From assembly GCF_000025925.1 (NCBI RefSeq), contig NC_014033.1:690001-722000 (forward strand): 32,000 nucleotides of DNA, written 5' to 3'. This stretch comes from Xylanibacter ruminicola 23. GTDB taxonomy: Bacteria > Bacteroidota > Bacteroidia > Bacteroidales > Bacteroidaceae. Shown here piece after piece: positions 445-27,979 of this stretch. The notes below the pieces were generated by a model that was given only the letters and a program-made list of their open reading frames with translations, was not told where the DNA came from and did no database searches. Position 1 is the stretch's first letter; every line of letters begins with the position of its first letter. A program made the translations under genes and the position numbers.

Positions 445-449
445 AGTGC

Positions 450-800: not shown

Positions 801-803
801 GGG

Positions 804-1019: not shown

Positions 1020-1068
1020 AATCTTACTGCTTTTAAAATTAATACTTAATACTTAGACTATTTGTCTG

Positions 1069-1076
1069 CAAATATA
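1069..1076 (-). promoter_or_regulatory. -7 promoter box (TATATTTG on - strand) for the ytxH operon
   Basis: CAAATATA on the + strand is TATATTTG on the - strand, about 50 nt upstream of the ATG at 1019. Confidence 0.45.
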
Positions 1077-1249
1077 CGAAAGTTTTCGGTTGTTATGCAA
1101 AAATCAGCCAATTTTTTAATAAAAAAGTTGTGTTTTGCCCGATTTAACAAACTTTATGTGGTGTTTTGGCTCGCTTTTGCGCAATAATTAGTAATTTCGC
1201 ACACAAAAATAGAATCAAATAAGTAATTAAAAAATAAAAATTAGGAAAA

Positions 1250-1744: not shown

Positions 1745-1753
1745 TTAGCAACA

Positions 1754-2167: not shown

Positions 2168-2193
2168 TTATCAATTATTAATTTTCAATTAGA

Positions 2194-2754
2194 ATGATAT
2201 TACCTATTTATATATTTGGTCAGCCTGTGCTTCGTAAGGTGGCCGAAGATATTACACCCGATTATCCTCAGTTGAAGGATTTGATTGGTGATATGTGGGA
2301 GACACTCGCTGAGTCGGAAGGTATCGGACTGGCTGCTCCTCAGATTGGTAAGCCCATCCGCTTGGTTGTGATCGACCTGGATGTGCTTTCGGATGATCTG
2401 CCTGAGTACAAAGGCTTTAAGCAGGTGTTTATCAATGCTCATATCGTAGAGTACGATGAGAGTAATACCGATGTGTCGGAAGAGGGTTGTCTGTCAATTC
2501 CTGCTATCCACGAGAAGGTTACACGTCCTACCCGTATCCACGTAGAGTGGGATGACGAGAACTTTGAGCACCACGACGAGTGGGTTGAGGGTTATCTGGC
2601 TCGTGTTATGCAGCATGAGTTCGACCACCTCGACGGTAAGATGTTTGTCGACCGTATCTCGCCACTCCGCAAGCAGCTCATTAAAAGCAAGTTGCGTGCT
2701 TTGACACAGGGTCGTTTCCGTTGTGGTTACAAGACCAAAGTGGCCAGAAAATAA
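2194..2754 (+). CDS. def: peptide deformylase
   Basis: All three deformylase motifs are present: [17 protein letters not shown] and HEFDHLDG. Confidence 0.95.
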
Positions 2755-2756
2755 AA

Positions 2757-4706: not shown

Positions 4707-4719
4707 ATTTTTCGATTAA

Positions 4720-4753
4720 TTTGCATTAATTTGGAATAAAAGCACTATCTTTG
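4720..4753 (+). promoter_or_regulatory. promoter candidate for thrS (TTTG ... TATCTTTG)
   Basis: TATCTTTG at 4746-4753, 35 nt upstream of the thrS ATG. TTTG elements lie at 4720-4723 and 4730-4733. Confidence 0.5.
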
Positions 4754-4788
4754 CACGCAATTTCAAAATTCAAACATATATTGTAGAT

Positions 4789-6735
4789 ATGATGATTAAC
4801 ATTACATTCCCAGACGGATCTGTTCGCTCGTATGAGCAGGGCGTAACTGGTTTCCAGATTGCAGAGAGCATCTCTCCGGCTCTCGCACGCAGCGTTGTAA
4901 GCTGTGGAGTAAACGGTGAGACAGTAGAGCTGAACCGTCCTATCAATGAGGACGCTACCATCGAGCTCTACAAGTTCGACGATGAGCAGGGTAAGCATAC
5001 CTTCTGGCACACATCGGCCCACTTGCTGGCCGAGGCACTGCAGGAGTTGTATCCTGGCATACAGTTCGGTTTCGGACCTGCTGTCGAGAATGGTTTCTTC
5101 TATGATGTACTGCTGAAGGACGGCGAGAGCATCAAGGAGAGCGATTTTCCAAAGATTGAGGCTAAGATGAAGGAACTGGCTGGTAAGAAAGAGCCTGTTG
5201 TTCGTCGTGAGGTACCTAAGGCCGAAGCCCTGAAGCAGTTTGCTGAGTGGGGACAGACCTATAAGTGCGAGCACATCGAGCAGGATCTTGAAGACGGTTC
5301 AATCACTACCTATACCCAGGGTAATTTCACCGATCTGTGCCGTGGTCCACACCTCGTGGATACAGGCGAGATCAAGGCCGTTAAGCTCACCTCAGTAGCA
5401 GGTGCTTTCTGGCGTGGCGATGCTAACCGCGAGCAGATGCAGCGCTTGTACGGTATCTCATTCCCAAAGAAGAAGATGCTCGACGAGTATCTTGAGATGC
5501 TGGAGGAGGCTAAGAAGCGCGACCACCGTAAGATTGGTAAGGAGATGGAACTCTTTATGTTCTCAGAGAAGGTAGGTAAGGGTCTGCCTATCTGGTTGCC
5601 AAAGGGTACTGAGCTCCGTCTGCGTCTGCAGGATCACCTGCGTAAGGTGCAGAAGCGTTTCGGCTATCAGGAGGTTATCACTCCACATATTGGTTCTAAG
5701 AACCTTTACGTTACCTCTGGTCACTATGCACACTATGGCAAGGATTCGTTCCAGCCTATCCATACCCCTGAGGAGGATGAGGAGTACATGCTGAAGCCAA
5801 TGAACTGTCCTCACCACTGCGAGATCTTCGCTTGGAAGCCACGTTCATACCGCGATCTGCCTCTGCGTATCGCTGAGTTCGGTACTGTATATCGCTATGA
5901 GCAGAGTGGTGAGCTGCACGGACTGACTCGTGTACGTTCGTTCACACAGGATGATGCGCACCTGTTCTGTCGTCCCGACCAGGTTAAGCAGGAGTTCCTG
6001 AACGTGATGGATATTATCGGTATCGTGCTTACTGCCTTCGGATTTAACTTCGAGGCTCAGATTTCTCTGCGCGATCCTAACGACCATGATAAGTATGTAG
6101 GTACTGATGAGGACTGGGCTCTGGCTGAGAAGGCTATTGTTGAGGCTTGTCAGGAGAAGGGCCTGCCTGCAAAGGTTGAATATGGCGAGGCTGCTTTCTA
6201 TGGTCCTAAGCTCGACTTCATGATTAAGGATGCTATCGGTCGTCGTTGGCAGCTGGGTACTATTCAGGTTGACTATAACCTGCCTAAGCGTTTCAACCTC
6301 GAATATACCGATGAGGATAACCAGAAGAAGACACCTGTCATGATTCACCGTGCACCATTCGGATCGATGGAGCGTTTCTGCGCTGTGCTGATCGAGCACA
6401 CCAGCGGTCACTTCCCCTTGTGGCTGACACCTGACCAGGTAGCTATCCTGCCTCTGTCGGAGAAGTACAACGACTATGCTCAGGAGGTTGCCAAGAAGTT
6501 TGATATGGGTGGTGTTCGTGCTACCGTTGATATGCGTAACGAGAAACTGGGGCGTAAGATTCGCGACAACGAGTTGAAGCGTATTCCTTACATGGTTATC
6601 GTAGGTGAGAAAGAGGCTGCCGAGGGTACTGTAGCTGTACGCCCACAGGGTGGTGGCGAGCAGAGTGTTAAGACCATTCAGGAGTTCATCGACGAGGTAA
6701 ATGCTCGTGTAGCTGAGATGACCAAAGACTTCTAA
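4789..6735 (+). CDS. thrS: threonine--tRNA ligase
   Basis: 648 aa with a TGS-like N-terminus, the editing-domain motif HTSAHLLA, a class II core (MNCPHH, FTQDDAH, HRAPFGS) and an anticodon-binding C-terminus. It sits upstream of infC-rpmI-rplT. Confidence 0.97.
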
Positions 6736-6801
6736 AGTTAAATATTTATAAAATTATTCAGATAATTAATAGTCCAGAGCTCAAAGTTCAAAGAAAATTA
6801 G

Positions 6802-6809
6802 TAATTTTG
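6802..6809 (+). promoter_or_regulatory. -7 promoter box TAATTTTG upstream of infC
   Basis: Matches TAnnTTTG and ends 25 nt before the infC ATG. Confidence 0.4.
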
Positions 6810-6834
6810 CAGCCGATTTCTTAAAAAGTAGTTA

Positions 6835-7542
6835 ATGAAGAATGACAAATTGAAGAATCAGTACCGTATCAATGAACAGATTCGAGTACGTGAAGTCCGC
6901 ATCGTAGGCGACGAGGGATCGTCGGTTATGTCTACGCGTGATGCACTCAACCAGGCCCGTGACATGGGAGTAGACCTCGTGGAGATTTCTCCTAATGCCA
7001 ACCCGCCAGTGTGTCGTCTCATCGACTACTCCAAGTTCCTCTACCAGCAGAAGAAGCGCCAGAAGGAAATGAAGGCCAAGCAGGTAAAGGTTGAGGTAAA
7101 GGAAATTCGATTCGGACCTCAGACTGATGAGCACGACTATCAGTTCAAGCTGAAGCATGCTCGTGAGTTCCTCGAAGAGGGCAACAAGGTACGTGCATAC
7201 GTATTCTTCCGTGGCCGCTCTATCCTGTTCAAAGAGCAGGGCGAGGTGTTGCTGCTCCGTTTTGCTAACGACCTTGAAGAGGTTGGAAAGGTTGAGGGCA
7301 TGCCATCACTCGAAGGCAAGAAGATGTTCCTCTACTTGGCTCCTAAGAAGGCTGGTTCGGCCAAGAAGAGCCAGCAGGCTCGCGACCGTGAGGCCGCTCA
7401 GCTCGAAGCTAAGGAGGCAGCAAAGCAGCAAAAAGAGGCTCAGACTGAAGAGACAGCTGAGATTCCAGCAAACGGTGGTCTTTTGGGTAATGCTAAGATT
7501 AGTGCCGATGCACTGAAGAAGCTGACTGAGAGCGAGGATTAA
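6835..7542 (+). CDS. infC: translation initiation factor IF-3
   Basis: The N-domain ([17 protein letters not shown]...[15 protein letters not shown]) and C-domain ([17 protein letters not shown]) are recognisable. A ~60-aa Lys/Glu/Ala-rich C-terminal tail follows. Confidence 0.93.
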
Positions 7543-7621
7543 TTAGAGAAGAAAAAGAAGGTGGCGCGCCCGGTATATGCGTGGCCGCTGGATATTAATA
7601 ACAATTTAAATTTTTAAAACA

Positions 7622-7819
7622 ATGCCAAAAGTAAAGACAAACTCTGGTGCAAAGAAGAGATTCTCTTTCACTGGAACAGGTAAGGTAAAGAGACGTCATG
7701 CCTTCCACAGTCACATTCTGACAAAGAAGACCAAGAAGCAGAAGCGCAACTTGGTAGGTACAACTATCGTTGATCCTAGCAACATGAAGCAGGTTCGTGA
7801 TCTGTTGTGTCTCCGTTAA
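7622..7819 (+). CDS. rpmI: 50S ribosomal protein L35
   Basis: MPKVKTNSGAKKRF...H is the typical L35 pattern. The protein is 65 aa and very basic. Confidence 0.95.
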   Translation: MPKVKTNSGAKKRFSFTGTGKVKRRHAFHSHILTKKTKKQKRNLVGTTIVDPSNMKQVRDLLCLR

Positions 7820-7853
7820 ACCTATTGTCTAACATTTAAAAGAAGTAAGAATT

Positions 7854-8198
7854 ATGCCAAGATCAGTAAATCACGTTGCATCAAGAGCAAAGCGTAAGAG
7901 AATTTTGAAGCTTACCCGCGGTTACTTCGGTGCCCGCAAGAATGTTTGGACAGTAGCAAAGAACACATGGGAGAAGGGTTTGACCTACGCCTATCGTGAT
8001 CGTCGCAACAAGAAGCGTAACTTCCGCAGCCTGTGGATCCAGCGTATCAACGCTGCCGCTCGCCAGGAGGGTATGAGCTACTCAGTTCTGATGGGTAACC
8101 TCGCTAAGGCAGGTATCGAGATTAACCGTAAGGTTCTCGCTGACCTCGCTATGAACAATCCCGAGGCTTTCAAGGCCATCGTAGAGAAGGTAAAGTAA
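7854..8198 (+). CDS. rplT: 50S ribosomal protein L20
   Basis: [29 protein letters not shown]...[23 protein letters not shown] is the canonical L20 sequence. Confidence 0.95.
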
Positions 8199-8226
8199 AT
8201 TAAACGACTTACCAAGTCTTAAAATA

Positions 8227-8258
8227 AAACCCCTGCCAATTGGCGGGGGTTTTACTTT
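8227..8258. terminator. bidirectional rho-independent terminator between rplT and the STAS gene
   Basis: 8-bp stem CCCCTGCC / GGCGGGGG (8230-8237 / 8242-8249) with an AATT loop. It is flanked by an A-run upstream and T-runs downstream, so a T-tract follows the hairpin on either strand. The flanking genes converge. Confidence 0.7.
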
Positions 8259-8260
8259 TG

Positions 8261-8569
8261 TTAATCCTTAAACTTAAACAGATGTACAAAGCCTGTGGTT
8301 TTGAACACGTCGTACACATTAGGCTGCAGGCCATGGATGAATATTTCGCAGTGGTTGATCCAGCCCTGCTGGGCGATGTGCATCAGTATTCGCAGACCGC
8401 TCGACGATATGTATTCGAGCTGGGTGCAGTCAATTACTATTTCTTGCTCAAAGTAGTCGTACAGCGGCCTAACTTCTCTTTCGGCGGCTGTTGATACCGA
8501 TGTGTCCAAGCGCCCTATCAGTATCAGTGTTACCTGGCGCTCGCCTGTTTTCTCGATTTTAATTTCCAT
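8261..8569 (-). CDS. STAS domain anti-sigma-factor antagonist (SpoIIAA/RsbV-like)
   Basis: 102 aa. LIGRLDT...IDCTQLEYISSSGLRIL contains the conserved phosphorylatable Ser context ([FY]I[SD]S[ST]GL). It lies 21 nt downstream of the sensor phosphatase/kinase gene. Confidence 0.85.
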   Translation of the reverse strand: MEIKIEKTGERQVTLILIGRLDTSVSTAAEREVRPLYDYFEQEIVIDCTQLEYISSSGLRILMHIAQQGWINHCEIFIHGLQPNVYDVFKTTGFVHLFKFKD

Positions 8570-8590
8570 CTCTATCTCTTCTCTTTATTT

Positions 8591-10807
8591 TTATTTCTCA
8601 ATTATTTTCTGCATGGTGAGTATGTTCTCATCATTCTTGCGCTCGTAGCTGATATGGTCCATATAGTGACGCATCAGATGGATACCCAATCCGCCCTCAA
8701 CGCGCTGCTCGGCTTGCTGCTCAACATCTACTTCGGCTGCCTTGGTGGCATCAAAGGGCATACCTTTGTCGTGGAGTATAAATGTCAGCATCAAGTCGTT
8801 AGCCTCGGCCTCCAGTATAATATGACTTGGTTCGCGGTCGGGGTAAGCGTATTTCATGACGTTCACCACAGCCTCTTCAACAGCCAGGGTGGTATAGGTT
8901 GTTGCCGTCTCGTTCATCTCGAGGTCTTGGCAGATGCTGTTCACGAATGCTGTCAGCTCAACTACCTCTTCTACATCGTTGCCTAATGTGAGGCAGCGGT
9001 GATAGAGACTGCCGTAGGCAGGTTGGGGGATGTATCTGATAGCCATCAGTGAAATGTCGTCGTTTTGTGGCGTGTCGCCCACAAAGTTCTGTGCTGTTTC
9101 AAAATGCTGATGTGCATATTGACGCGCATCCAAATGCAAATCGGCCAGTCGGTTGGCTCTGTTACTGATGCGATCGCGACCAAACTGTTCGTGGTTGGCC
9201 GTCTCGGCCTCGGTATAACCGTCGGTATACATAAACAGTATCTCGTTGCGATCCATGAGTATGGTCTGATTGGTGTACTCCCACTCTGGGCGCAAACCCA
9301 ATGGTATGTTATTATCTACATAAATAAAGCGTGCCAGTGTGCCTACCAGCATGGGGGGCTCGTGACCGGCATTGCTGTAGTTCAGTTGGCCTGTCTTCAG
9401 GTCGAGTACGCCTAAGAAGAGAGTAACGAACATGTACGAGTCGTTGGTGTCGCATAAAGTCTTGTTCATGCGACTGATAATGTTACTGGGATCAGTATCC
9501 AGCATCGCCTCGCAACGGAACAGTGATATGGTTTCGGCCATCATCAATGCTGCAGGTACGCCCTTGCCGCTCACGTCGCCAATGCAGAAGAACAGCTTGT
9601 TGTCGTGCATCAGGTAGTCGTATAGGTCGCCGCCTACCTCCTTGGCCGTTACTATCTCACCGTAGATGTCAACATCTGGGCGCTCGGGGTAGGGAGGATA
9701 TTTCTTGGGAAGCATCGACTGCTGTATGTGACTGGCAATCTTTAACTCCTGCTCGATACCTGCCTTCTGGGCTGTGGTTTTTCTCAACTGGTCGATGTTG
9801 CGTATCAGGGCGCGACTCAGGAAGAAGATAACTATCAGACCAAAGAGCATAACAGCCAGAATGATGGCGCCAAGCACGTTGCCCTGATGGTTAATGATGG
9901 CCTCGGGTACAACAATCACTACTGTCCACTCGGCGTATTTCACAAACGAGTAGAACAATACTGAGCTCACACCGTCTTTGGTAATCTTACAGCTACCGCT
10001 CTCATGGTTTCTCATGTGGTTGGCCACTTCGTCATCTGCAGTGTCGGCTGTTTGGGATGCAACCTCCTGGAAAGTGGTTTTCAGAATAAGATCCTCGTTG
10101 GGATGAATGAGATAGGTACCATCGTTATCGAGTACAAAGCTGTACGATTTTTCCTTAAATCCCTTTTCAAAACGCTCATGGTTTTGGGCGTCAATACGCT
10201 TGTGGCGCAATCGGAGCCACTCCAGCGACACATCGGCACCCAGCATGGCCACCTTATTACCATTCTTATCGTGAATGTGTGTCATATAAGTGGTGGTAAG
10301 CTGTTGCGATGCAGCCTGATCGAAGTAAGGCGGTGTCCAATCGCCTTCATCGCGTTCATAAGCTGTTTGGTACCAGGGGTGCGTCAGGAAATCGGGATGA
10401 TCCTCGTTCATCTGCTTACCCTTGATAACGCCGTCCGAATCGCGCCAGGCATATATCTCGAAGTAGTGTCCACGCTGTGGGTAGAAGTCGGGTTCAAATA
10501 TCAGGCGACAGCTCGACATGTATTTGTTAAGCTTTACCATTTGCTCCAAATGTGCCTGCAACTTGTCGGGATTGTTGAGATCGTTCTCAATCACACTAGT
10601 GCTATTGATGGCTGCCACATACACGTCGGACAGCACACCACGTATTTTCTCGTTGGCGTGCAGCATAATACCCTCGTAACGCGATTCAACCTCGCGTGCG
10701 GTAGAGTTACGTGTAATGACAAATACAAAGCTCATAATGGTGGCCCACATGACTAACAGTACCACCATGATGATTAAGCTTAGTTTGTATGCAGATGCTT
10801 TCTTCAT
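8591..10807 (-). CDS. membrane sensor with fused PP2C/SpoIIE phosphatase and RsbW-type HATPase_c kinase domains
   Basis: 738 aa. An N-terminal TM helix is followed by a ~270-aa periplasmic Cache-like region (WYQTAYE...GDWTPPYFD...VAMLGADVSLEWL) and a second TM helix. Next comes a SpoIIE/PP2C domain (EVGGDLYDY, CIGDVSGKGVPAALMMA, YSNAGHEPP, FMYTDGYTEA, NDDISLMAIR). The C-terminus is RsbW-like (EEAVVNVMKYAY N-box, HDKGMPFD, GGLGIHLM). Confidence 0.85.
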   Translation of the reverse strand: MKKASAYKLSLIIMVVLLVMWATIMSFVFVITRNSTAREVESRYEGIMLHANEKIRGVLSDVYVAAINSTSVIENDLNNPDKLQAHLEQMVKLNKYMSSCRLIFEPDFYPQRGHYFEIYAWRDSDGVIKGKQMNEDHPDFLTHPWYQTAYERDEGDWTPPYFDQAASQQLTTTYMTHIHDKNGNKVAMLGADVSLEWLRLRHKRIDAQNHERFEKGFKEKSYSFVLDNDGTYLIHPNEDLILKTTFQEVASQTADTADDEVANHMRNHESGSCKITKDGVSSVLFYSFVKYAEWTVVIVVPEAIINHQGNVLGAIILAVMLFGLIVIFFLSRALIRNIDQLRKTTAQKAGIEQELKIASHIQQSMLPKKYPPYPERPDVDIYGEIVTAKEVGGDLYDYLMHDNKLFFCIGDVSGKGVPAALMMAETISLFRCEAMLDTDPSNIISRMNKTLCDTNDSYMFVTLFLGVLDLKTGQLNYSNAGHEPPMLVGTLARFIYVDNNIPLGLRPEWEYTNQTILMDRNEILFMYTDGYTEAETANHEQFGRDRISNRANRLADLHLDARQYAHQHFETAQNFVGDTPQNDDISLMAIRYIPQPAYGSLYHRCLTLGNDVEEVVELTAFVNSICQDLEMNETATTYTTLAVEEAVVNVMKYAYPDREPSHIILEAEANDLMLTFILHDKGMPFDATKAAEVDVEQQAEQRVEGGLGIHLMRHYMDHISYERKNDENILTMQKIIEK

Positions 10808-18650: not shown

Positions 18651-18690
18651 GCCGTCGTAAATGTAAATTTACGGCGGTTTTTTTTGTTTG
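18651..18690 (+). terminator. rho-independent terminator after pepO
   Basis: Imperfect hairpin GCCGTCGTAAAT / ATTTACGGCGG followed by a T9 tract (18678-18685 and onward). Confidence 0.7.
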
Positions 18691-18713
18691 ATTCATTTTT
18701 TTATTTAACTTTG
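18683..18713 (+). promoter_or_regulatory. promoter candidate for the kinase/AAA+/FHA/PP2C operon (TTTG-N19-TAACTTTG)
   Basis: TTTG at 18683-18686 and TAACTTTG at 18706-18713 with a 19-nt spacer. The -7 box ends 30 nt upstream of the ATG at 18744. Confidence 0.55.
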
Positions 18714-18743: not shown

Positions 18744-19667
18744 ATGAACGATATTACACAAAACCCAGATCGAATAAGCCGAGGTGCCGAGCCGCTTTAT
18801 CGTGAGCACTCTGCACAGCAACCTCAGTATCAGCAAGCCATGCAGGCCAATACGGCTAATGGTATCCAATGTCCTCATTGTGGCGCACTCAACGAAGCCG
18901 AAGCACTTTTCTGTGCCTCGTGCGGCGAGCCTATCGGTATGGCCACCTGTCCCTATTGTGGGGCAGCTGTCGATGCCGACGCCGACTTCTGCGAAAGTTA
19001 CCGTCACTATATCCGCAAGGACGTGTGCTCATTCTGTGGCGCCTATCTGCATGGCGCCGAGGCCTACTGCCCTGAGTGCGGTAATCCGGTGGGTGGTATC
19101 GATTGTCCTGTTTGTGGAACCCATAATGATTTCTCGTTCTGCAAACAGTGTGGTACAGCTCTTACCGAAGAGGCCCGTCTGATGAAGGAGAAGGTGATGG
19201 AGATGCCCGAGTACCAGCAGATGCAGAAACTGGCCGAAGAGTTGCAGAAGTTGGATTTGCAGATGCCTTATGTTACCGAGCAGGATAAGGAGCGCGACCG
19301 TAAGAGTCAGGAGCTGCGCCAGCGCGTACTCATGCTGTTGGCTCAGGATCGTGGTTTGGATCGTGTAGATGCCAACCTGGCCGACCATAAGGTGATGAGT
19401 AAAGACGAATACGACAAGAAGAAGCAGGAACGTATGGATATGCTGTCGCGACTGTTAGACCAGATGGCACAGCTGCCTCAGGAAAAGCCTGCTCAGGTGC
19501 GTAACTATGCTATGGCCTGCAAGCCTCAGGGTGTACGTCTGGCTTGGCAGTGCAACTTTAAGCACGCCCTCCACTCAAGTCCATGCGGATGTGCCAAGCC
19601 GCAGATGGGCGGAAAATGGATTATACTTGGTAAGGGAACAAGAAAAGAAATTAAAGACGATATCTAA
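18744..19667 (+). CDS. multi-zinc-ribbon / coiled-coil protein
   Basis: 307 aa. A Gln-rich N-terminus is followed by four consecutive CxxC(G)...CxxCG ribbons: CPHCG..CASCG; CPYCG..FCES (second half degenerate); CSFCG..CPECG; CPVCG..CKQCG. Then comes a ~130-aa highly charged helical segment and a C-terminal Cys cluster (CKPQ..WQC..SPCGC). Its stop overlaps the kinase start (TAATG). Confidence 0.8.
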   Translation: MNDITQNPDRISRGAEPLYREHSAQQPQYQQAMQANTANGIQCPHCGALNEAEALFCASCGEPIGMATCPYCGAAVDADADFCESYRHYIRKDVCSFCGAYLHGAEAYCPECGNPVGGIDCPVCGTHNDFSFCKQCGTALTEEARLMKEKVMEMPEYQQMQKLAEELQKLDLQMPYVTEQDKERDRKSQELRQRVLMLLAQDRGLDRVDANLADHKVMSKDEYDKKKQERMDMLSRLLDQMAQLPQEKPAQVRNYAMACKPQGVRLAWQCNFKHALHSSPCGCAKPQMGGKWIILGKGTRKEIKDDI

Positions 19668-22600
19668 TGAGTACGGATCGAACTCCACAAAATAAAGTAA
19701 ACGGAAACGAAGAGGTAAACGTAGATAAGACCGTACGTGCAACCAACTTTGATTTCCCACAGAATACTCCTTCAAAGGGTGAGGAGCCCGACAAACCGCT
19801 TGATGGCACCATCCGCATTGATATGCCGAAGATGGAAGCCCCCAAGCCAGCTGCTCCTAAACCACTTGACGGTACCGTGCGTGCACCTGGCCTTAATCAG
19901 CCTATTACACCACGACCTGCAGCGCCTCGTCCTGCAGCTCCACGTCCAGCAGCACCCAAAGCATTGGATGGAACTGTGCGTGCACCCGGCCTTAATCAGC
20001 CGATTACACCGCAATCTGCTGCGCCACGTCCAGCTGCTCCCAAGGCTTTGGATGGCACCGTTCGTGCCCCTGGTATCAACCAGCCCATTGCACCACAGCC
20101 CGTTACCCCACAGCCTGCAGCACCTAAACCTGCAGCACCATCAATGGGTAGTACCGTTCGTGGTGCACAGCCCCAGCCTCAAGCACAGGCTCAGGCTCAG
20201 GTTCGTCCCAACGTCAACATCTCGATTATCTCGTCGGCCAGTAATACCGACCGTGCCAAGAAACAGCGCCTGCAACGTAACCTGATTGATGAGAATATCT
20301 ACACGCTGAAAGGACAGGAGTATCGTCGTGTATCGGTACTGAGCGAGAATACAGGCGAGGCCGAGGTTTTTCTGGTTGAAAAAGACAACAAGGAATATGT
20401 ACTGAAAGTGTACTATCCCAATTTCGATGTGAACCGTAAGATATTGCAGACGGTTCTGAACTTCGACTTTGAGATGGTAGTAAAGGTGTACGACTTTGGT
20501 AAGACCTATGTGGATGGTAAGCACCGTTACTACGAGTTGATGGAGTACCTGCAGGGTGGCTCGATGGCCGAGTTCAATCTGGAAGGCGATATAAACAAGT
20601 TCCGTCGTATAGCTCTTCAGAGTGCTGCAGCCTTGGCTTACTGTCATCAGCTCAGAATTCTGCACAAGGATATCAAACCAGGCAACTTCTTCTTCCGTGA
20701 TAAGGACCATAACCAACTGGTTCTGGGCGACTTCGGTATTTCGAGTATGCTGGAGGAAGACGGTAAGTCGCATAAAACCACCCAGGCCCGTACCCCAATC
20801 TATGCGGCACCCGAAATGTATGCCGACGTAATTGATGGTGTGGTAGAGATTTCGCCAAAGGCCGACTACTACTCTTTGGGTATCAGCTTGATGACGCTGT
20901 GGTTAGGCGAGAGTCCGATGAGTACCAACGAGCGTGTGATGATGCGCCAGAAGAACGAGGGTCGCATACCACGCATGAACGAGTTGCCAGAGCGTATCAA
21001 GCTGCTGGTAATGGGTCTTACGGTGGTTAACCCCATCAACCGTTGGGGTTATGAGCAGGTAGAGCAGTGGTTCTTAGGCGAGAGCCCGAAGGTCGACCTG
21101 TCGTCACCATTCCTGAAGTACCAGAGTTTCGTTGTCGATCCAGAGCGTAACCTGGTGGCCGAGAACGTACAGGAGCTGGTGCCCATGCTGCTGGCCAACG
21201 AGCGCTTGGCTATCGGTTATCTGTATAACGGACGTATCACCCAGTGGTTGGACGCTTGTGGTAACAACAAACTGAGCACCATTGTTAAAGATATCATTTC
21301 CAAGAAATATCCTATCGATCAGCGTGCCGGTTTGATGGCATCGCTGTACGCTATGGACCCTGCCTATCCGTATAAGGATGTGCGTGGAACCAACTGCGAG
21401 GATATCCATGCGGTATGTATCTCGCTGCTGAGTAATCAGGACGAGTATGCCATATCGTTGGCTGCCCCGAACGATAATTTCTACCTTTATGTGGAAACCC
21501 ACACCAGCTGCGATGTTGATCGTTTGCGTTCTTACTTTAAGGAAGTAGACCATAACAATAAGGAGCAGGTACGTGTGGCTATCATGAAGATAGTGCTCGA
21601 GGTTGATCCTGAGATACCATTTATGGTAAAGCATCCATCGGCAGCAATTAACGATATTGTTAGCGCCTTTGGTCATGAAGATATAACCGAAGACGAGTGG
21701 CATAGTCTGACCGACGGACGCTTGCTGGCCTGGATGTACAGTCACGAGGACCAGATGGCGTGCGAGAGTCTGCGCATCATGACGCTGGATCAGCCTTACT
21801 CACGAAACTTGGCTTATAAGGTTCTTTATAACCTGAATCGCGAATCGGCCTATGATCTGGCCGGTGCCTTTACTCCTATACAAGTGGGCGAACTGCTCAA
21901 CGAGCGTTTGCATAAGGCGCAGAACCTTCCTGAGAAGGAGTTCGAGGAGGAGATGAAGGACTTTACTGAACTTGACGGTCGTTTTGCTTACTATGCCCAG
22001 CTGCACGGCTGGACCGAGATGTACAACGAGCATAAGCGCTGCTTCGACTTTAAGAGCGAGGAGAATACCGAACGTATGGGCGCTTATGATGTGAAGACGG
22101 CTGTTTACCGCTTCTGTCGTATCTTAGGCGTTACACCTACCTATATGATGGGCGACGGTATTGAGTACGCCGACGGCCGTAACCTGCAGGCAAAGAAGTT
22201 GCAGGTGTTCCGCAACGAAATCCGCAACGGCTCGATGGGGCAGTGGATGTCGGTGTTCTATCACGAAGACCCCAATGCCGACTTTACGGTAGAGTACTCG
22301 TACGAGCATGCCGTTGAGGACTGGTTGATGGCAATGGGAAAAATCGATCCTTCGCAGCGTTATTATAAGCGCTTTATCGATGCCCGCGACGAAACCCAGC
22401 GCCGTGTGGCCTTTGTAAAGGACAGTTGGAAGCGCGCCAAGACCAAGGAGAAGATCTGGCGTACAGCCTTCTACACCCTGAGCGGTATCTGGTTGGTATT
22501 CGTGCTGATATTCGGCGTTACCAATCCTGAGTATATCCTCACGCATACCTTTATCAGTATCGGTCTGCCTTTGGGTGGAATGACTGGTATGATTGTGGCC

Positions 22601-23119
22601 ACCCGCTCGTTCTTCAAGGGCTACGACTTTATGTTCTCGTTCCTGTGGGGACTGGTGGGCGCGTTTACGTGCTTTATACCTATTATTATATTAAAGTATA
22701 TTGGCGCATCGCACCCCATGCTGTTTAATATCGCCATTATCGTAATCACGCTTATCTACATGCTGGTTTGTCACCTCACAGATTTCCGTGGTAATGAGAA
22801 GGCCGACAGCCGACTGATATCCGAGGTGCTCGAAAACGATATGAAATCGAACTTGATAGAACCGCTGTACTACACCTTCAAGGCCCGTTCGTACAAGTTT
22901 AAGGGATCTAAGTTCGGTTTGCTTAACGATGTTACCGATCAGGTTCGCTCTATCACGGGCGAGAGTGTGCTTCACTACGTGCTGTGGAGCCTGCTGATGC
23001 TGGTATTCGTGGTATCGTTTGTGGTATTCAGCCCATCGATGCTGAACATTGCCAATCCTAACAGTCACATGAAGGAGGCCCCTAAAAGTATTATTAAGAA
23101 AATAGATAGAGACGCATAA
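19667..23119 (+). CDS. membrane-anchored Hanks-type Ser/Thr protein kinase with Pro-rich repeat N-terminus
   Basis: The kinase core spans roughly nt 20300-21110: beta3 Lys in YVLKVY, catalytic loop HKDIKPGN (H333), DFG (D355), and YAAPE. Before it is a ~200-aa disordered repeat region. After it is a ~450-aa region I cannot assign and five hydrophobic helices (nt 22454-23034). Confidence 0.88.
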   Translation: MSTDRTPQNKVNGNEEVNVDKTVRATNFDFPQNTPSKGEEPDKPLDGTIRIDMPKMEAPKPAAPKPLDGTVRAPGLNQPITPRPAAPRPAAPRPAAPKALDGTVRAPGLNQPITPQSAAPRPAAPKALDGTVRAPGINQPIAPQPVTPQPAAPKPAAPSMGSTVRGAQPQPQAQAQAQVRPNVNISIISSASNTDRAKKQRLQRNLIDENIYTLKGQEYRRVSVLSENTGEAEVFLVEKDNKEYVLKVYYPNFDVNRKILQTVLNFDFEMVVKVYDFGKTYVDGKHRYYELMEYLQGGSMAEFNLEGDINKFRRIALQSAAALAYCHQLRILHKDIKPGNFFFRDKDHNQLVLGDFGISSMLEEDGKSHKTTQARTPIYAAPEMYADVIDGVVEISPKADYYSLGISLMTLWLGESPMSTNERVMMRQKNEGRIPRMNELPERIKLLVMGLTVVNPINRWGYEQVEQWFLGESPKVDLSSPFLKYQSFVVDPERNLVAENVQELVPMLLANERLAIGYLYNGRITQWLDACGNNKLSTIVKDIISKKYPIDQRAGLMASLYAMDPAYPYKDVRGTNCEDIHAVCISLLSNQDEYAISLAAPNDNFYLYVETHTSCDVDRLRSYFKEVDHNNKEQVRVAIMKIVLEVDPEIPFMVKHPSAAINDIVSAFGHEDITEDEWHSLTDGRLLAWMYSHEDQMACESLRIMTLDQPYSRNLAYKVLYNLNRESAYDLAGAFTPIQVGELLNERLHKAQNLPEKEFEEEMKDFTELDGRFAYYAQLHGWTEMYNEHKRCFDFKSEENTERMGAYDVKTAVYRFCRILGVTPTYMMGDGIEYADGRNLQAKKLQVFRNEIRNGSMGQWMSVFYHEDPNADFTVEYSYEHAVEDWLMAMGKIDPSQRYYKRFIDARDETQRRVAFVKDSWKRAKTKEKIWRTAFYTLSGIWLVFVLIFGVTNPEYILTHTFISIGLPLGGMTGMIVATRSFFKGYDFMFSFLWGLVGAFTCFIPIIILKYIGASHPMLFNIAIIVITLIYMLVCHLTDFRGNEKADSRLISEVLENDMKSNLIEPLYYTFKARSYKFKGSKFGLLNDVTDQVRSITGESVLHYVLWSLLMLVFVVSFVVFSPSMLNIANPNSHMKEAPKSIIKKIDRDA
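19793..20140 (+). repeat. in-frame tandem protein repeat K[PA]LDGT[VI]R...Pro-rich (4 copies)
   Basis: Copies start at 19793 (KPLDGTIRIDMP..), 19859, 19958 and 20042 (K[PA]LDGTVRAPG[LI]NQPI[TA]P..PAAP). The units are 28-33 aa. They differ mostly at synonymous positions (e.g. cttgacggtacc / ttggatggaact / ttggatggcacc). Confidence 0.9.
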
Positions 23120-23125
23120 TATAAA

Positions 23126-26100
23126 ATGGTTTGTCAGAATTGTCATAAAGAAAACAGAAGCAAAGCAAAGTTCTGCAAGTGGTGCGGACAGCAGCTTGTT
23201 ACTACTGACTTGCTTGATAAGCTGGTTGGCCTCGATGAGGTGAAGAACCAGCTGAAAACCATTGTCGATACCTATACGTTTCTGCGCTCTCGCAAGGATA
23301 TCTCTAAAGCCCGTATCTCGCTCAATGCCATTGTGATTGGTGATACAGGTACGGGTAAGACGTCGCTGGCCGAGATTCTGCGCGATTACTTCTATCAGCA
23401 TAAGATCATCGAGAAACCCCAGCTGATGATGGTAGATGCCGTAGATTACCAGCGATTCGTCGACAAATGGGATGAAAATATCAAGAAAGCAAAGAATGGT
23501 ATATTGTTCTTCGACAATGTGCAGAAGCTTTTGCCCGATAAATACTCTAACCAGGTGAACCCGCTCGACAAGCTGTTTGTTGAGATGGACAAATGGGAGG
23601 ATAACCCCATTGTGATTATATCCGGACTCTCGAAGGGTTTGGAGGACTTCTTGGAGAGCAACCCAGCCGTAGCCAACCGTTTCAAGTATACCTTCCGTAT
23701 GACCACGCCAAACTTCCAGGAGCTTACCGAGATATGTAAGCTGAACCTGCAGTTGAAGTATGGCATACAGGATTTCTCGCCCGAAGCTGATAAACAGTTA
23801 TTGCGTTTCTTTAAATATCAGGTTAAGATTAAGGACGAGACCTTTGGTAACGGACACCTGGCCCATAAAACAGCCGAGAATATCTTTACCCAGTATATCA
23901 GTCGTGGCGCCAATGCCACAAGGGTAGAGTTGAGCGACATCACGGGTTATGTACCCGAGGAGCGCTCGGTTGAGGATATCCTGCGCGATCTGGACAGCTA
24001 CATTGGTATGGACGAGGTTAAGGCCGCCGTAAAAGAGATGGCCTACTCGGTACAGAACGCCATGCAGCGCGCCGAGCGTGGACTGGGCGAGCAGGAGAAA
24101 ATGTCGATGCACATTATTCTTACTGGTAACCCAGGTACAGGTAAAACCACCATTGCCCGTAAGTTGGGCGAAATCCTGGCAGCCATCGGCTATCTGGATA
24201 GCGGTCACGTAGTTGAGGTCGACCGTGCCAAGATGGTAAGTCAGTATCAGGGCGAAACACCTAAGGTGGTTGATGCCCTTTGCGATAAGGCCAAGGGCGG
24301 TATCCTGTTTGTGGATGAGGCCTACACCTTGGCTCCTGTGAGTGCGTCGGGCGATCGTGATGCCCAGGGCGCACAGGCTTTGGAGAAACTGATGAAACGT
24401 ATGGAGGACGATCGCGGACAGTTTATCGTGATTGCCGCTGGTTATCGCACGGAGATGGAGAACCTGTTCCGTGTGAACCCTGGTTTCCGCAGCCGTTTCA
24501 ATTATTTCCTCGATATCAAGGACTACTCGCCAGCCGAGCTGTTCGAGATTATGCAGGTATTTGCCAAGCAGAAAAAGTATATCTTCTCGCCGGATGCCCA
24601 GGTACTTACTCAGAAGATGATCAAGGAGATGTACGATTCGCGCGACAAGGACTTTGCCAACGGTCGTACCATGCGTACGCTCTTCGACCAGATTTGCAAG
24701 AAACAGGCACAGCGCCTGCAGGGGGCAAATATTTCTGCGATGAGCAACGAGGAGCTCATGACCATTGTACGCGACGATATCCCATACGATGCACCACAGA
24801 CCGTAAGCGTCGACGACTGTCTGAAGAAACTCGACGGTTTGGTTGGTCTCTCGGGTGTGAAGAAGGAGATTGCCAACCTGGCAGCCTTCCTGAACCTGCA
24901 GATTGCACGTGGCGAAACCAACACCTTCCAAGGCAAGCACTATGTGTTTACCGGTAACCCTGGTACGGGTAAAACTACCGTAGCCCGTATCATGGCCGAT
25001 ATCTTTAAGACGCTGGGCGTTGTGGCCCGCGGACAACTGGTTGAGGCCGACCGCTCTAAACTGGTGGCAGGCTTCTCGGGTCAGACAGCCATCAAGACCA
25101 ACCAGCTGGTTGATCAGGCTATGGGCGGTGTACTGTTTATCGACGAGGCTTACACGCTGAAGTCGAACGATGGCGACAGCTTTGGCGCTGAGGCTATCGA
25201 CACGCTGCTGAAACGTTTGGAAGATGATCGTGGTAAGTTTATCTGTATCGTGGCTGGTTATACCGACCAGATGCACGACTTTATCGACACCAACCCAGGC
25301 TTGAAGAGTCGCTTTACACAAACCATCCACTTCGACGACTATACGCCCGACGAGCTCACGGAGATCTTCCTGCATCTCGCATCCGGCAAGAACTTCACCG
25401 TCGACGAGGAGACCAAGGCGGCTATTCACCGTATGTTCGAGCAGCTCTATCTGCGCCGCGATAAGAACTTCGGTAATGCCCGTGAGGCACGCCGCATCTT
25501 CAACGAGGCTGTAGAGCGCCAGAGTCAGCGTCTGGTAAAGCAGATGACCAGTCCCGACTTCAAGGAGAGCGACATGTTTGCGCTCACCACCGCCGATCTT
25601 CCCCTGTCGCAGGGCGAGACCGCACGTCCGCTCGATGTGGTGCTCAACGAGCTCGAAGAGTTCATTGGTATGCGCTCAGTCAAGGATTCTATCCGTCGTC
25701 TGGCCGTACAGAGCATGTTCATGAAGCAGCGTGCCGCTATGGGTGCTGGCAGTGTTCAGCAGATGTCGATGAACTTTGTGCTTACGGGTAATCCGGGTAC
25801 AGGTAAGACATCTATTGCCCGCAAGATGGGTGAGATACTCCAGGCCATGGACATTCTGCCTACATCGCGTGTCATCGAGGCCAGTCGTGCTACGTTGGTT
25901 GGTAAGTACATGGGCGAAACACCTAAGATTGTGAACAGCATGTGCGATAAGGCCATGGGCGGTATCCTGTTCATCGACGAGGCTTATACCTTGAGCGATG
26001 GCGGCGACATGTACGGCAAGGAGGCTATCGACACGCTGATGAAACGTATGGAGGACGATCGTGGTAAGTTTGTGGTTATCGCTGCAGGCTATAAGGATAA

Positions 26101-26431
26101 GATGGAGGAGTTCATGATGATGAACGCCGGACTGGCCAGCCGATTCACCCACAAGTTGCACATCGACGACTACGATCCTGATGAGCTGCTGGCTATTTAC
26201 AAGCACATGGCCCAGAAGGAACAGTACCAGTTTACGCCTGAGGCTGAGCTTAAGGCACTCGACAAGATCTATAAGATGGTTCTTACCAAGACCGAGTCGT
26301 GGGGTAATGCCCGCGAGATGCGCAACCTGCTCGATTCTACTATCCAGCACCTGTCGGAGCGCGTATCAGCGCTGCCGGCCGATCAGGTTACAAAGGAAAC
26401 ATATCAGATTATACTACCAGAAGATATTTAA
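23126..26431 (+). CDS. zinc-ribbon protein with four tandem CbbX/SpoVK/EccA-class AAA+ ATPase modules
   Basis: N-terminal ribbon CQNC..(11)..CKWCG. Four modules each open with L[DE]x[LFY][VI]G[LM]xxVK. The Walker A motifs are GDTGTGKTS (aa 72), GNPGTGKTT (334), GNPGTGKTT (610) and GNPGTGKTS (888). The Walker B motifs are ILFFDNVQ (degenerate), ILFVDEAY, VLFIDEAY and ILFIDEAY. Each module also has an NPG[FL].SRF-type motif. Confidence 0.9.
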   Translation: MVCQNCHKENRSKAKFCKWCGQQLVTTDLLDKLVGLDEVKNQLKTIVDTYTFLRSRKDISKARISLNAIVIGDTGTGKTSLAEILRDYFYQHKIIEKPQLMMVDAVDYQRFVDKWDENIKKAKNGILFFDNVQKLLPDKYSNQVNPLDKLFVEMDKWEDNPIVIISGLSKGLEDFLESNPAVANRFKYTFRMTTPNFQELTEICKLNLQLKYGIQDFSPEADKQLLRFFKYQVKIKDETFGNGHLAHKTAENIFTQYISRGANATRVELSDITGYVPEERSVEDILRDLDSYIGMDEVKAAVKEMAYSVQNAMQRAERGLGEQEKMSMHIILTGNPGTGKTTIARKLGEILAAIGYLDSGHVVEVDRAKMVSQYQGETPKVVDALCDKAKGGILFVDEAYTLAPVSASGDRDAQGAQALEKLMKRMEDDRGQFIVIAAGYRTEMENLFRVNPGFRSRFNYFLDIKDYSPAELFEIMQVFAKQKKYIFSPDAQVLTQKMIKEMYDSRDKDFANGRTMRTLFDQICKKQAQRLQGANISAMSNEELMTIVRDDIPYDAPQTVSVDDCLKKLDGLVGLSGVKKEIANLAAFLNLQIARGETNTFQGKHYVFTGNPGTGKTTVARIMADIFKTLGVVARGQLVEADRSKLVAGFSGQTAIKTNQLVDQAMGGVLFIDEAYTLKSNDGDSFGAEAIDTLLKRLEDDRGKFICIVAGYTDQMHDFIDTNPGLKSRFTQTIHFDDYTPDELTEIFLHLASGKNFTVDEETKAAIHRMFEQLYLRRDKNFGNAREARRIFNEAVERQSQRLVKQMTSPDFKESDMFALTTADLPLSQGETARPLDVVLNELEEFIGMRSVKDSIRRLAVQSMFMKQRAAMGAGSVQQMSMNFVLTGNPGTGKTSIARKMGEILQAMDILPTSRVIEASRATLVGKYMGETPKIVNSMCDKAMGGILFIDEAYTLSDGGDMYGKEAIDTLMKRMEDDRGKFVVIAAGYKDKMEEFMMMNAGLASRFTHKLHIDDYDPDELLAIYKHMAQKEQYQFTPEAELKALDKIYKMVLTKTESWGNAREMRNLLDSTIQHLSERVSALPADQVTKETYQIILPEDI
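23213..26428 (+). repeat. four tandem internal AAA+ module duplications (module starts about 23213, 23990, 24830, 25651)
   Basis: The recurrent protein-level motif set has a period of about 260-280 aa. Modules 2-4 are clearly alike at the protein level, and module 1 is divergent. Confidence 0.85.
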
Positions 26432-26437: not shown

Positions 26438-27220
26438 ATGATTATTTGTCCAGCTTGTAAAGAAGAAATAGAAGACGATTCACATTACTGCGACCAATGT
26501 GGACAGCAGTTGCTGTTCTGTAAGCAGTGCGGTCATGTGGGGCTTGGACGTCGTTGTACACGTTGCGGCGGCATGATGGCTTTGCCTGCAGGTAGCATGG
26601 CAGCAGCCAATGCCGGAGCAAATCCCATGGGCGCTCCTATGGGCAACCCGATGGCTAATCCTATGGGCAACCCGATGGCTAATCCTATGGGTAACCCAAT
26701 GGGTAGTCCTGCTGGTAATCCTGGGGTAGGGGCTGCTGTGCGCCCTGGTGTAAACATCAGCGTTACACCCAGTGCCTCAGTATCGCGCGCCGCAAATGTA
26801 CCACCAGCACAACAACAGCAGCCTGTATCACCACGCACATCCAATGCGCAGAACATTGCAGCCAGCATATCGGTAGGTCCTGCTATCTCTATTGCTCAGG
26901 CAGGTGCCGGTCGTTCAAGCATGCCGATGATGACGTTGGTTAACGAAAGTCTCAATATACGTATCACAGCTATGAACGGTGCCATTATCGGTCGCCGTAA
27001 GGGTCCGTACGTTCAGTTCTTCGAGCAGAATTCGTACGTATCGGGTATTCATGCCCAGCTCAAGTACAAGTCAGGCGCAGGTTGGTTTGTTATCGATATG
27101 AACTCGTCAAACGGTACCAGAATTAATCAGGCTCCTATCCAGCCCGAGACCGAGAACCCGTTAAAGAATGGCGACGTGCTGTCGATTGCCAATGTCAACC
27201 TTCAAGTAGTAATTAGATAG
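26438..27220 (+). CDS. double zinc-ribbon / low-complexity / FHA domain protein
   Basis: N-terminus CPAC..CDQCG followed by CKQCG..CTRCGG. A ~130-aa Ala/Gly/Pro/Met/Asn low-complexity linker contains NPMG repeats. The C-terminal FHA signature is IIGRR....VSGIHAQL......FVIDMNSSNGTRIN......L.NGDVLSIANV. Confidence 0.88.
   Translation: MIICPACKEEIEDDSHYCDQCGQQLLFCKQCGHVGLGRRCTRCGGMMALPAGSMAAANAGANPMGAPMGNPMANPMGNPMANPMGNPMGSPAGNPGVGAAVRPGVNISVTPSASVSRAANVPPAQQQQPVSPRTSNAQNIAASISVGPAISIAQAGAGRSSMPMMTLVNESLNIRITAMNGAIIGRRKGPYVQFFEQNSYVSGIHAQLKYKSGAGWFVIDMNSSNGTRINQAPIQPETENPLKNGDVLSIANVNLQVVIR
26639..26710 (+). repeat. 24-nt tandem repeat (2 perfect copies + 1 diverged) encoding MGNPMANP
   Basis: atgggcaacccgatggctaatcct occurs at 26639-26662 and identically at 26663-26686. 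A third copy, atgggtaacccaatgggtagtcct, lies at 26687-26710. Confidence 0.9.
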
Positions 27221-27235: not shown

Positions 27236-27979
27236 ATGATAACAATACACATGACAGCAGCCAGCAAAGTAGGCTGCGTGCGTAGTCAGAACGAAGACAT
27301 GGTGCTGCTTGGCAGTCATTTCGTGAGGAATGATGCTTTTAGCACACGCGTAGACCTGACCAATAGCGACCGTTATATCATGGCTGTGGCCGATGGTATG
27401 GGTGGACATAATCGTGGTGATGTGGCCAGCAGTGATGCGCTGCATAACCTGGAGTTCTATTTTCACGATCTGCCCACAGGTCTTAGACCCGAATCCATCA
27501 AAGATAAGTTTGAGGATTGGTTAGACTCCATCAACAACATCATCGATTCAAAGGGTCGCTCCGACGAGCAGTATAAAGGTATGGGTACCACATTGGTAGG
27601 CTTGGCCTTCTACGAGGGCCAGTTCTATACGCTGAATTGTGGCGACAGTCGCTTGTATCGTTTCCGCGATGGCGATCTTACCCAGCTTACATCCGATCAC
27701 TCGCTCAGCAACATGCTCGGCTCTTCGCAGCATTCTAACGTTATCACTAACTGTATCGGTGGCGGTGCTACAAGCTCGTTTATCGATATTGTGAACATAA
27801 CCGATGATATCAAGGAGGGCGATGTTTACATGCTGTGCAGCGACGGACTCACTGATATGTTGCCCGATTCCATTATCTACACACTTCTTGCCGAAGGTTC
27901 TGACGCCAACACCCTCTGCGATGCCGCTGTGGCCGCTGGAGGCTTGGACAACGTGTCGTGTTGTGTGTTGCAATTCTAA
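27236..27979 (+). CDS. PP2C-family Ser/Thr protein phosphatase (Stp/PrpC-like)
   Basis: The PP2C motifs are present: VRSQNEDM, VADGMGGHNRGDVAS, GMGTTLVGL, NCGDSRLY, LCSDGLTD and GGLDNVSCCVL. Confidence 0.92.
   Translation: MITIHMTAASKVGCVRSQNEDMVLLGSHFVRNDAFSTRVDLTNSDRYIMAVADGMGGHNRGDVASSDALHNLEFYFHDLPTGLRPESIKDKFEDWLDSINNIIDSKGRSDEQYKGMGTTLVGLAFYEGQFYTLNCGDSRLYRFRDGDLTQLTSDHSLSNMLGSSQHSNVITNCIGGGATSSFIDIVNITDDIKEGDVYMLCSDGLTDMLPDSIIYTLLAEGSDANTLCDAAVAAGGLDNVSCCVLQF

Follow-up and report, generated by a model that had tools for sequence, protein, structure and literature searches.

The PASTA kinases (PknB-PstP-FhaA/FhaB, PrkC/PrpC, and StkP/PhpP) are membrane Hanks-type kinases encoded beside PP2C phosphatase and FHA-domain genes, and two reports indicate that phosphorylated disordered segments matter for their signalling: a juxtamembrane region in PrkC (bioRxiv 10.1101/2025.11.01.686061) and a segment near the kinase domain in StkP (PMC12077195). 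In the PpkA-Fha1-PppA pathway of type VI secretion systems (T6SS), the sources describe threonine phosphorylation by a membrane kinase that involves an FHA protein, is reversed by a PP2C phosphatase, and leads to a machine with an AAA+ component being assembled or recruited (PMC5995506, PMC12607579). The Deinococcus radiodurans DRA0331-0334 operon is described as encoding a vWA protein, a Ser/Thr kinase, an FHA protein, and a PP2C phosphatase (bioRxiv 10.64898/2026.01.23.701218). Here we analyzed a 32,000-nucleotide stretch of Xylanibacter ruminicola 23 (contig NC_014033.1, positions 690,001 to 722,000; hereafter the window), in which the open reading frame at 19667..23119 (+) encodes an unusual Hanks-type kinase as the second of five co-oriented genes, referred to below as the cassette.

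We consider it about 60% probable, for the picture taken as a whole, that the product of this frame is a Hanks-type Ser/Thr kinase with catalytic competence and an inner-membrane anchor; that this kinase defines a five-gene phospho-signalling cassette, conserved and inherited with the chromosome; and that the active membrane kinase would carry a phospho-Thr array that docks an FHA protein and controls an AAA+ ATPase, with a PP2C phosphatase resetting the system. The threonine array and the cassette were both missed by an initial annotation of the window made from the sequence alone, and both are more telling on function than the features it listed. Relative to known Hanks kinase/FHA/PP2C modules, the present one would be set apart by a novel helical-repeat domain, a novel 4+1 transmembrane (TM) module, a Thr array at the N-terminus, and an AAA+ partner with tandem modules. 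No published description of the kinase architecture or of the cassette was found; literature coverage was incomplete, so that this is absence of evidence only. The cassette is not a new signalling principle; it is well defined and widespread, occurring in Bacteroidota and related phyla, and is seemingly uncharacterised although its carriers are of ecological importance.

Comparison with the PASTA kinases revealed that the window kinase has five TM helices rather than one and a 410-aa helical domain before the membrane, that its Thr array is N-terminal whereas theirs is juxtamembrane, that the Prevotella protein lacks an ectodomain, and that the cassette partners add a tandem AAA+ ATPase and zinc-ribbon proteins. 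The window kinase gave no Pfam PASTA match, and the PASTA kinase profile NF033483 reached only 61 versus 450 bits, over the kinase domain alone. As in PASTA kinases, some members of the present family carry peptidoglycan-binding-type domains outside the membrane. The T6SS threonine-phosphorylation pathway acts in the recruitment of ClpV. Unlike ClpV, the AAA+ protein of the cassette is of the SpoVK/CbbX/EccA type with four modules in a single chain; the kinase architecture is unrelated to that of PpkA beyond the catalytic domain, no T6SS genes were present in the window or the related loci, and the FHA protein is not of the TagH type. The DRA0331-0334 operon likewise joins kinase, FHA, and PP2C genes to an extra adaptor-type protein, but there a vWA protein stands in place of the zinc-ribbon proteins, with no AAA+ ATPase, polytopic module, or helical-repeat domain. 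Within the SpoVK/CbbX/EccA clade, the AAA+ protein exceeded the curated cut-offs for TIGR02881, TIGR03922, and TIGR02880, the scores being summed over four modules. Characterised SpoVK, CbbX, and EccA have one such AAA+ module each, and we know of no fusion of any of them to a zinc ribbon and of no pairing with a kinase of the present kind.

Analysis of the open reading frame list and Pfam matches showed that 19667..23119 (+) is one uninterrupted frame of 1150 aa encoding a Hanks-type kinase. A search with residues 470-1150 returned 1406 homologues, and the identical protein is recorded on 40 contigs, one of them 3,619,559 bp long; the frame is therefore a real gene. A gene-call artefact was rejected, the start codon being supported by the MSTxR N-terminus conserved across relatives. 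When all 1.84 billion cluster representatives were searched with the same residues, 264 clusters (at 50% identity) were obtained at E<=0.001. Full-length members 1000-1400 aa long and with 20-30% identity align collinearly and end to end with residues 470-1150 (E down to 1e-242) and keep the 4+1 hydrophobic pattern, so that collinear homology extending beyond the kinase domain, with the same hydrophobic pattern, places the window protein in a kinase/helical-repeat/4+1 TM family.

Pfam Pkinase (PF00069) matched residues 240-466 (E=1.9e-29; 103.3 bits against a gathering cut-off of 31.7), and with the motif positions and the family alignment the kinase domain was delimited to 20309..21076 (+), approximately residues 215-470. 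The motifs are SENTGEAEVF in the Gly-rich loop (226-235), VLK with the β3 Lys K247, H333-K-D335 within HKDIKPGN, DFG at 355, and APE at 381-383; K337 and N340 are present, and the activation loop carries TTQ at 371-373. The initial annotation had read HKD in place of HRD with intact β3 Lys, DFG, and APE motifs, and these readings held. Conservation was scored on an alignment of 96 diverse family sequences, in which K247, H333, D335, K337, N340, and D355 were found in every sequence having a residue there (93-94 of 96 rows). The Gly-rich loop had been called degenerate: the canonical GxGxxG is indeed replaced by S-E-N-T-G-E-A, but the family shares the form S-x-x-[TS]-G-E-A, with G230 in 80, E231 in 89, and A232 in 81 of the 96 rows, and judged from this alignment the variant is a conserved family signature rather than random decay. 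No conserved Glu column for the αC helix was found between K247 and β4; the best column was E/D in about 50% of sequences and alignment-dependent, and at the candidate positions the window kinase carries K258 or N256. With the αC Glu seemingly not conserved either, the kinase domain is, on its sequence, more atypical than first described.

The window kinase lacks the Arg before the catalytic Asp that defines RD kinases, and HKD was present in all Prevotella-clade homologues with a detectable catalytic loop. Across the family, position 334 was R in 49, K in 35, and another residue in 10 of the 94 aligned members (two of the 96 rows were gapped), such that 89% have a basic residue there. The activation-loop TTQ is conserved in the clade of the window kinase, and many HRD members have Asp or Glu in that column. 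Non-RD kinases such as EFR likewise lack the Arg, but the Lys of the window kinase retains the positive charge, and R and K alternate within the family. EFR, a plant immune receptor kinase, is reported to require activation-loop phosphorylation, as at least one non-RD kinase that does so (PMC8463890), and the rule is therefore not universal. The initial annotation had cited as a general rule that non-RD kinases are not controlled by activation-loop phosphorylation; applied to the window kinase this is weakly founded, since a basic residue is kept beside a phosphorylatable or acidic site.

The Pro/Ala/Gln-rich N-terminal tail (19667..20287 (+), residues 1-207), delimited by repeat search, motif counts, and sequence reading, contains six [DG]-[KGS]-T-[VI]-R motifs with Thr at 22, 48, 70, 103, 131, and 163. 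The copies read VDKTVRA, LDGTIRI, LDGTVRA (three times), and MGSTVRG, the extreme N-terminus reads MSTDR, and part of the tail is made up of an 84-nt tandem DNA repeat at 19932-20094. Across 130 family members, tails contained a mean of 2.9 TxR motifs versus 0.51 in shuffled tails, and TxR density was 2.87 per 100 aa in the tail versus 0.18 in the remaining protein. The family motif logo is [DE]-K-T-[IVL]-R, up to 11 copies occur per tail, and many members start with MSTxR. Near-identical strains (P0003, P0004, P0010, and P0390) differed in T-[VI]-R copy number, from 4 to 6, which alongside the 84-nt repeat points to an array that expands and contracts on short time scales. Because the Thr is invariant with fixed flanks, the motifs lie in a disordered kinase tail, and an FHA partner is constant, the array was read as a putative multisite phospho-acceptor and FHA-docking platform, an assignment that we hold at slightly less than even odds. 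In Mucilaginibacter paludis, the FHA partner (locus L087, 15289-16008) ends in ...NTTQRI, like the MSTQRI start of its own kinase; by analogy with GarA, this end may be a self-binding pseudo-substrate motif.

Structure modelling revealed that the region following the kinase domain is an all-alpha domain of about 410 aa (21128..22357 (+), approximately residues 488-897; AlphaFold2 and hhalign). The AlphaFold2 models, built with a 65-sequence alignment, had a mean predicted local distance difference test score (pLDDT) of 91.8 and a predicted template modelling score (pTM) of 0.82 for residues 470-900, which were nearly all helix, and a mean pLDDT of 87.3 and pTM of 0.70 for residues 470-1150. 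Profile-profile comparison with hhalign detected internal repeats of about 65-95 aa, with segments 489-574, 574-669, and 669-734 interrelated at 76-96% probability; given this mutual similarity, the central region is a helical-repeat domain. The initial annotation had recognised no motif here and had staked its reading on the absence of any well-known sensor or enzymatic domain, and the searches agreed. No Pfam family matched residues 470-1150 at E<=0.1, scanning the kinase against NCBIfam and PADLOC returned generic kinase-domain matches only and none for these residues, and PDB sequence searches gave noise (best E=0.15 with the single sequence and 0.083 with the family profile). Foldseek found no relative of the 470-900 model in the PDB (best E=0.94), and the best values for the 470-1150 model were E=0.7 against the PDB and 0.34 against the viral models of BFVD. 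On these Pfam, PDB, and Foldseek nulls we reject a known sensor or enzyme domain in the central region. The top Foldseek matches to the central-domain model were beta-catenin chains (E=0.94-1.3, probability 0.15-0.20, TM-score about 0.2), a merely generic helical-repeat resemblance, and an ARM/HEAT-type alpha-solenoid was therefore rejected. A docking or signal-transducing role of the domain is plausible. Three homologues (P0015, P0023, and P0114) carry the precomputed Pfam label PF27509.1.

The membrane module (22358..23032 (+)) was defined from hydrophobicity, the AlphaFold2 model, and the family alignment. Its five hydrophobic segments, at approximately residues 931-952, 957-983, 988-1015, 1017-1039, and 1101-1122 (nt 22454-23032), were all modelled as helices at high confidence, and a K/R-rich stretch of about 60 aa separates TM4 from TM5, giving the 4+1 arrangement. 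Five closing helices with one long loop had been proposed initially, and by hydrophobicity, charge pattern, and modelled helices the segments behave as TM helices. In the model, a single 52-residue helix (898-949) spans the K/R-rich juxtamembrane segment through TM1, followed by TM2 (961-983), a kinked TM3 (988-1015), TM4 (1017-1039), and TM5 inside a long helix (1083-1121). The TM4-TM5 loop forms two short helices, the second of which covers EPLYYTF (22859..22879 (+), residues 1065-1071). This is the window copy, identified from the family alignment and consensus, of the EPLxYAF motif, which lies family-wide in this predicted-cytoplasmic loop and is the best-conserved element of the membrane module. 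A transporter-like bundle was rejected on account of the poor conservation of the TM sequences. No Pfam match over the TM region pointed to a recognised polytopic sensor module (5TMR-LYT, MASE, and others), and the sole TM-region Pfam match among 40 distant members scanned at E<=0.001 was a weak one to Virul_fac_BrkB (E=8.6e-4).

Mean K+R counts in the family were 4.2 before TM1, 0.2, 0.5, and 0.5 in the short loops, and 8.7 in the TM4-TM5 loop; this charge distribution, together with the C-terminal domains of relatives, favours a topology with the N-terminus inside and the C-terminus outside. Some members extend C-terminally into SH3_3 (three members), PG_binding_1, YARHG, WG_beta_rep, Sel1, or MORN domains, and the peptidoglycan-binding and SH3b-type domains beyond TM5 support the C-terminus-out orientation. 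Many extensions have in common an unassigned module, roughly 110 aa long and bearing a GxWxG motif, for which a Pfam scan gave nothing significant. The tail beyond TM5 is at least 90 aa long in 67 of 95 full-length family representatives and shorter than 50 aa in 26, including most of the closest relatives of the window kinase, which itself has a 28-aa tail and no extracytoplasmic sensor. The initial annotation had noted that PASTA, TPR, WD40, and other sensor families are missing, as the Pfam and NCBIfam scans of the kinase confirmed, and had regarded the TM bundle as an anchor or intramembrane sensor. The first premise stands for the window protein, which has no ectodomain, but this absence appears specific to its lineage and is most simply explained, by parsimony without a tree, as a loss in the Prevotella lineage. 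Since most members carry a C-terminal domain past TM5, the TM module in the family is probably more than an anchor and connects a domain beyond the membrane with the helical domain and kinase in the cytoplasm.

The five genes are adjacent and co-oriented in the window, with spacings of -1 (overlapping stop and start), 6, 6, and 15 nt. A strong terminator-like hairpin with a 12-bp stem and a T run (18651..18678 (+)) follows the upstream M13 peptidase gene and, read from the sequence, marks the 5' boundary of the cassette. A candidate promoter box, TAACTTTG (18706..18713 (+)), lies 30 nt ahead of the first ATG and resembles what we take to be the Bacteroidetes -7 box consensus, TAnnTTTG. Gene 1 (18744..19667 (+), 307 aa; Pfam DZR E=5e-17) encodes a multi-zinc-ribbon protein: zinc ribbons at the N-terminus, then a charged linker that is probably a coiled coil, and at the C-terminus the conserved motif W-x-C-N-F...H..P..C..P..GG.W. 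The gene 1 stop overlaps the kinase start codon (TAATG). In distant genomes, too, its orthologues are found upstream of the kinase gene, and 31 alignment columns are invariant. The last 60 residues, without a Pfam assignment, have W, C, H, P, C, P, GG, and W invariant across phyla and may form a small further metal-binding or docking module. Gene 2 (19667..23119 (+), 1150 aa), assigned from Pfam and its homologues, is the kinase.

Gene 3 (23126..26431 (+), 1101 aa; Pfam and NCBIfam) encodes a protein that has a zinc ribbon at its N-terminus, followed by four SpoVK/CbbX/EccA-type AAA+ modules in tandem, with four stretches matching Pfam AAA and three matching AAA_lid_6; TIGR02881 gave 779 bits and TIGR03922 (EccA) 703 bits, summed over the four modules. 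It lay downstream of the kinase in every context examined and was the most conserved gene of the cassette, with 88% identity between two Prevotella species versus 65% for the kinase. In its first AAA+ module D-N replaces the Walker B D-E, and its orthologues range from 834 to 1940 aa, which, judged from length, corresponds to roughly three to seven modules per chain. Gene 4 (26438..27220 (+), 260 aa; Pfam FHA E=3.2e-14, DZR E=1.1e-6) encodes a double zinc ribbon, an NPMG linker, and an FHA domain that retains the GR...SxxH...NG phospho-Thr-binding residues. The low-complexity NPMG/NPMA repeat between its zinc ribbons and FHA domain spans 26585-26723 (+), and the orthologue in Prevotella sp. 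khp7 is 74 aa shorter, so linker length is variable. Gene 5 (27236..27979 (+), 247 aa; Pfam PP2C_2 E=8.3e-14) encodes a PP2C-type Ser/Thr phosphatase that reached 160 bits with the NCBIfam Stp1/IreP-type model, under the equivalog cut-off of 230. By eye, it keeps what we take to be the metal-binding motifs of PP2C phosphatases.

Species genomes were scanned with a 6-sequence central-domain alignment. A relative of the central domain was encoded in 340 of the species genomes scanned, and the best 80 loci all came from Prevotellaceae or Bacteroidales. The central region of the window kinase was 98% identical to that of Xylanibacter (Prevotella) ruminicola Ga6B6. Gene 1 was present in 80/80 Prevotellaceae loci, and all five genes were co-oriented in 78/80, both exceptions being truncated contigs. 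The flanks were constant in Prevotellaceae, with Tex, ABC-F, and M13 peptidase genes upstream and metA and U32 genes downstream, and the cassette occurred at 55-98% identity in essentially every locus retrieved; these fixed housekeeping flanks and the near-universal presence indicate vertical inheritance. Among six distant relatives, five (L001, L002, L003, L085, and L087) had all five genes, and distant cassettes include ones on contigs of 6.9, 4.2, and 1.1 Mb. The same gene order surrounds kinases of only about 27-33% identity, including an SH3_3-bearing member and that of Mucilaginibacter paludis. Named family sources were Prevotella/Xylanibacter, Melioribacteraceae, and Calditrichaceae, with a more remote branch including Mucilaginibacter; the wider taxonomy rests on few named proteins. 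In Calditrichaceae locus L086, a second multi-AAA+ protein, a RyR-domain protein, and a 1794-aa DUF4062-NACHT-TPR STAND NTPase are encoded (1-8969) ahead of the cassette genes, and this context looks more conflict-system-like, from its gene content, than the Prevotella one.

In the mechanism that we propose, the helical domain and the TM module would carry a membrane or envelope cue, arising in relatives from the C-terminal outside domain, to the kinase, which would phosphorylate the Thr motifs of its own tail. The FHA adaptor would be recruited to the multivalent phospho-Thr platform so formed, the adaptor and the zinc-ribbon proteins would position or switch the tandem AAA+ remodeller at the membrane, and the PP2C phosphatase would reset the system. 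More tentatively, and with distinctly less confidence than the picture of an active kinase in a conserved cassette, the whole may be an envelope-surveillance machine of Bacteroidota, Ignavibacteriota, and Calditrichota, a counterpart of PknB/FhaA or PpkA/Fha/ClpV where PASTA kinases are lacking. On that same possible reading, a periplasmic C-terminal domain, in some cases of the peptidoglycan-binding type, would feed a new transducer made of the helical repeats and the 4+1 TM module in most lineages and the TM module itself would do so in Prevotella, and a self-written phospho-Thr code on [DE]-K-T-[IV]-R would load the FHA adaptor and the giant single-chain AAA+ ATPase.

Several observations weigh against the picture of an active, array-bearing kinase in a five-gene cassette. 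With the canonical glycines gone from the Gly-rich loop and the αC Glu seemingly unconserved, activity is possibly low or unusual. The strict TxR motif was absent in 37 of the 130 family members, some having variants instead (DKT[IV]V, eight times; STSRI) and some perhaps being truncated gene calls. Many FHA domains prefer a hydrophobic residue at pT+3, and this residue is Pro or Ala in the Prevotella motifs. The poor conservation of the TM sequences across the family fits an anchor as well as a sensor. Of the cassette genes, locus L086 has those for the kinase, AAA+, and FHA proteins only, with no adjacent zinc-ribbon or PP2C gene.

The unusual catalytic domain could instead mark a pseudokinase or scaffold that binds only nucleotide or partners and, via its helical domain, keeps the zinc-ribbon, FHA, and AAA+ proteins tethered at the membrane. 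The S-x-x-[TS]-G-E-A loop, the Asn or Lys at the candidate αC positions, and a Pfam match that begins only at profile position 23 all speak for it, but we regard it as improbable: pseudokinases usually lose at least one of the β3 Lys, catalytic Asp, Lys337, Asn340, and DFG Asp, all of which are kept in the 93-94 aligned members, and the co-conserved PP2C phosphatase and phospho-Thr-reading FHA protein make little sense without kinase activity. CbbX-type AAA+ proteins act on the terminal peptide tails of their substrates, as established for Rubisco activase, and the TxR repeats might be engagement tags or a flexible tether gripped by the tandem AAA+ ATPase, with the kinase as its substrate or anchor and the FHA and PP2C proteins acting elsewhere. 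The array does lie at an extreme disordered terminus that starts with MSTxR in many members, and no other gene of the five is as well conserved as that of the AAA+ protein (88% versus 65% for the kinase); an invariant Thr with fixed flanks nevertheless looks like a kinase or FHA site, and an FHA reader is always encoded alongside. As a replacement for a phospho-acceptor array this idea seems unlikely to us, while the two are mutually compatible.

We also considered an anti-phage or conflict system, in which the kinase would sense infection and trigger an AAA+ effector. The kinase domain resembles PADLOC mad6 (E=1.2e-31), PD-T4-6, and MkoA, it scored 68 bits with the NCBIfam MAD6 model, and cassettes of other genomes have a ParDE pair or a STAND NTPase in their vicinity. 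These matches, however, are confined to generic kinase or AAA domains and fall far under the cut-offs (68 versus 460 bits for MAD6 and 14.6 versus 990 for BREX PglW), the PADLOC matches covering residues 217-467 only, so that the protein does not belong with the MADS Mad6, PD-T4-6, or PglW kinases. No nuclease or other toxic effector is present, profile scans of the window proteins found no methyltransferase or other defence-system partner, the GC content is unremarkable, and the fixed housekeeping neighbourhood in Prevotellaceae indicates vertical inheritance; we regard a defence role as improbable. Regulation of a secretion apparatus, in the manner of PpkA/Fha/PppA of the T6SS or EccA of type VII secretion, is less probable again and in our judgement very unlikely. 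The component set of membrane kinase, FHA, PP2C, and AAA+ ATPase does match, as do the summed EccA score of the AAA+ protein (TIGR03922, 703 bits) and a weak TagH-type FHA match, but the latter reached only 33 bits with VI_FHA against a cut-off of 120, the kinase lacks the single TM helix and periplasmic vWA layout of PpkA, and neither the window nor any of the 87 related loci that were inspected contained a structural gene of a secretion system.

Elsewhere in the window, 8591-10807 (-) encodes a 738-aa protein in which a dCache/PDC-type sensor is fused to a SpoIIE (PP2C-like) phosphatase and to an RsbW-like HATPase_c_2 domain; this is a second and unrelated Ser/Thr phospho-signalling protein. 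The Bacteroidetes small RNA FopS (Rfam RF04319) was matched at 97-164 (+) with 79 bits against a gathering score of 56.

Ser/Thr phospho-signalling is almost unstudied in Bacteroidota, including the dominant Prevotella of rumen and gut, and with the present analysis an odd kinase becomes a defined, widely conserved five-component system with testable parts. Its central domain, confidently modelled and without a solved structural relative, is a target for structure determination, and the single-chain tandem AAA+ ATPase is the likely output of the cassette. If the proposed picture is true, the cassette would represent a new way to couple a membrane kinase to a protein-remodelling ATPase, and would provide a candidate envelope sensor for phyla without PASTA kinases.

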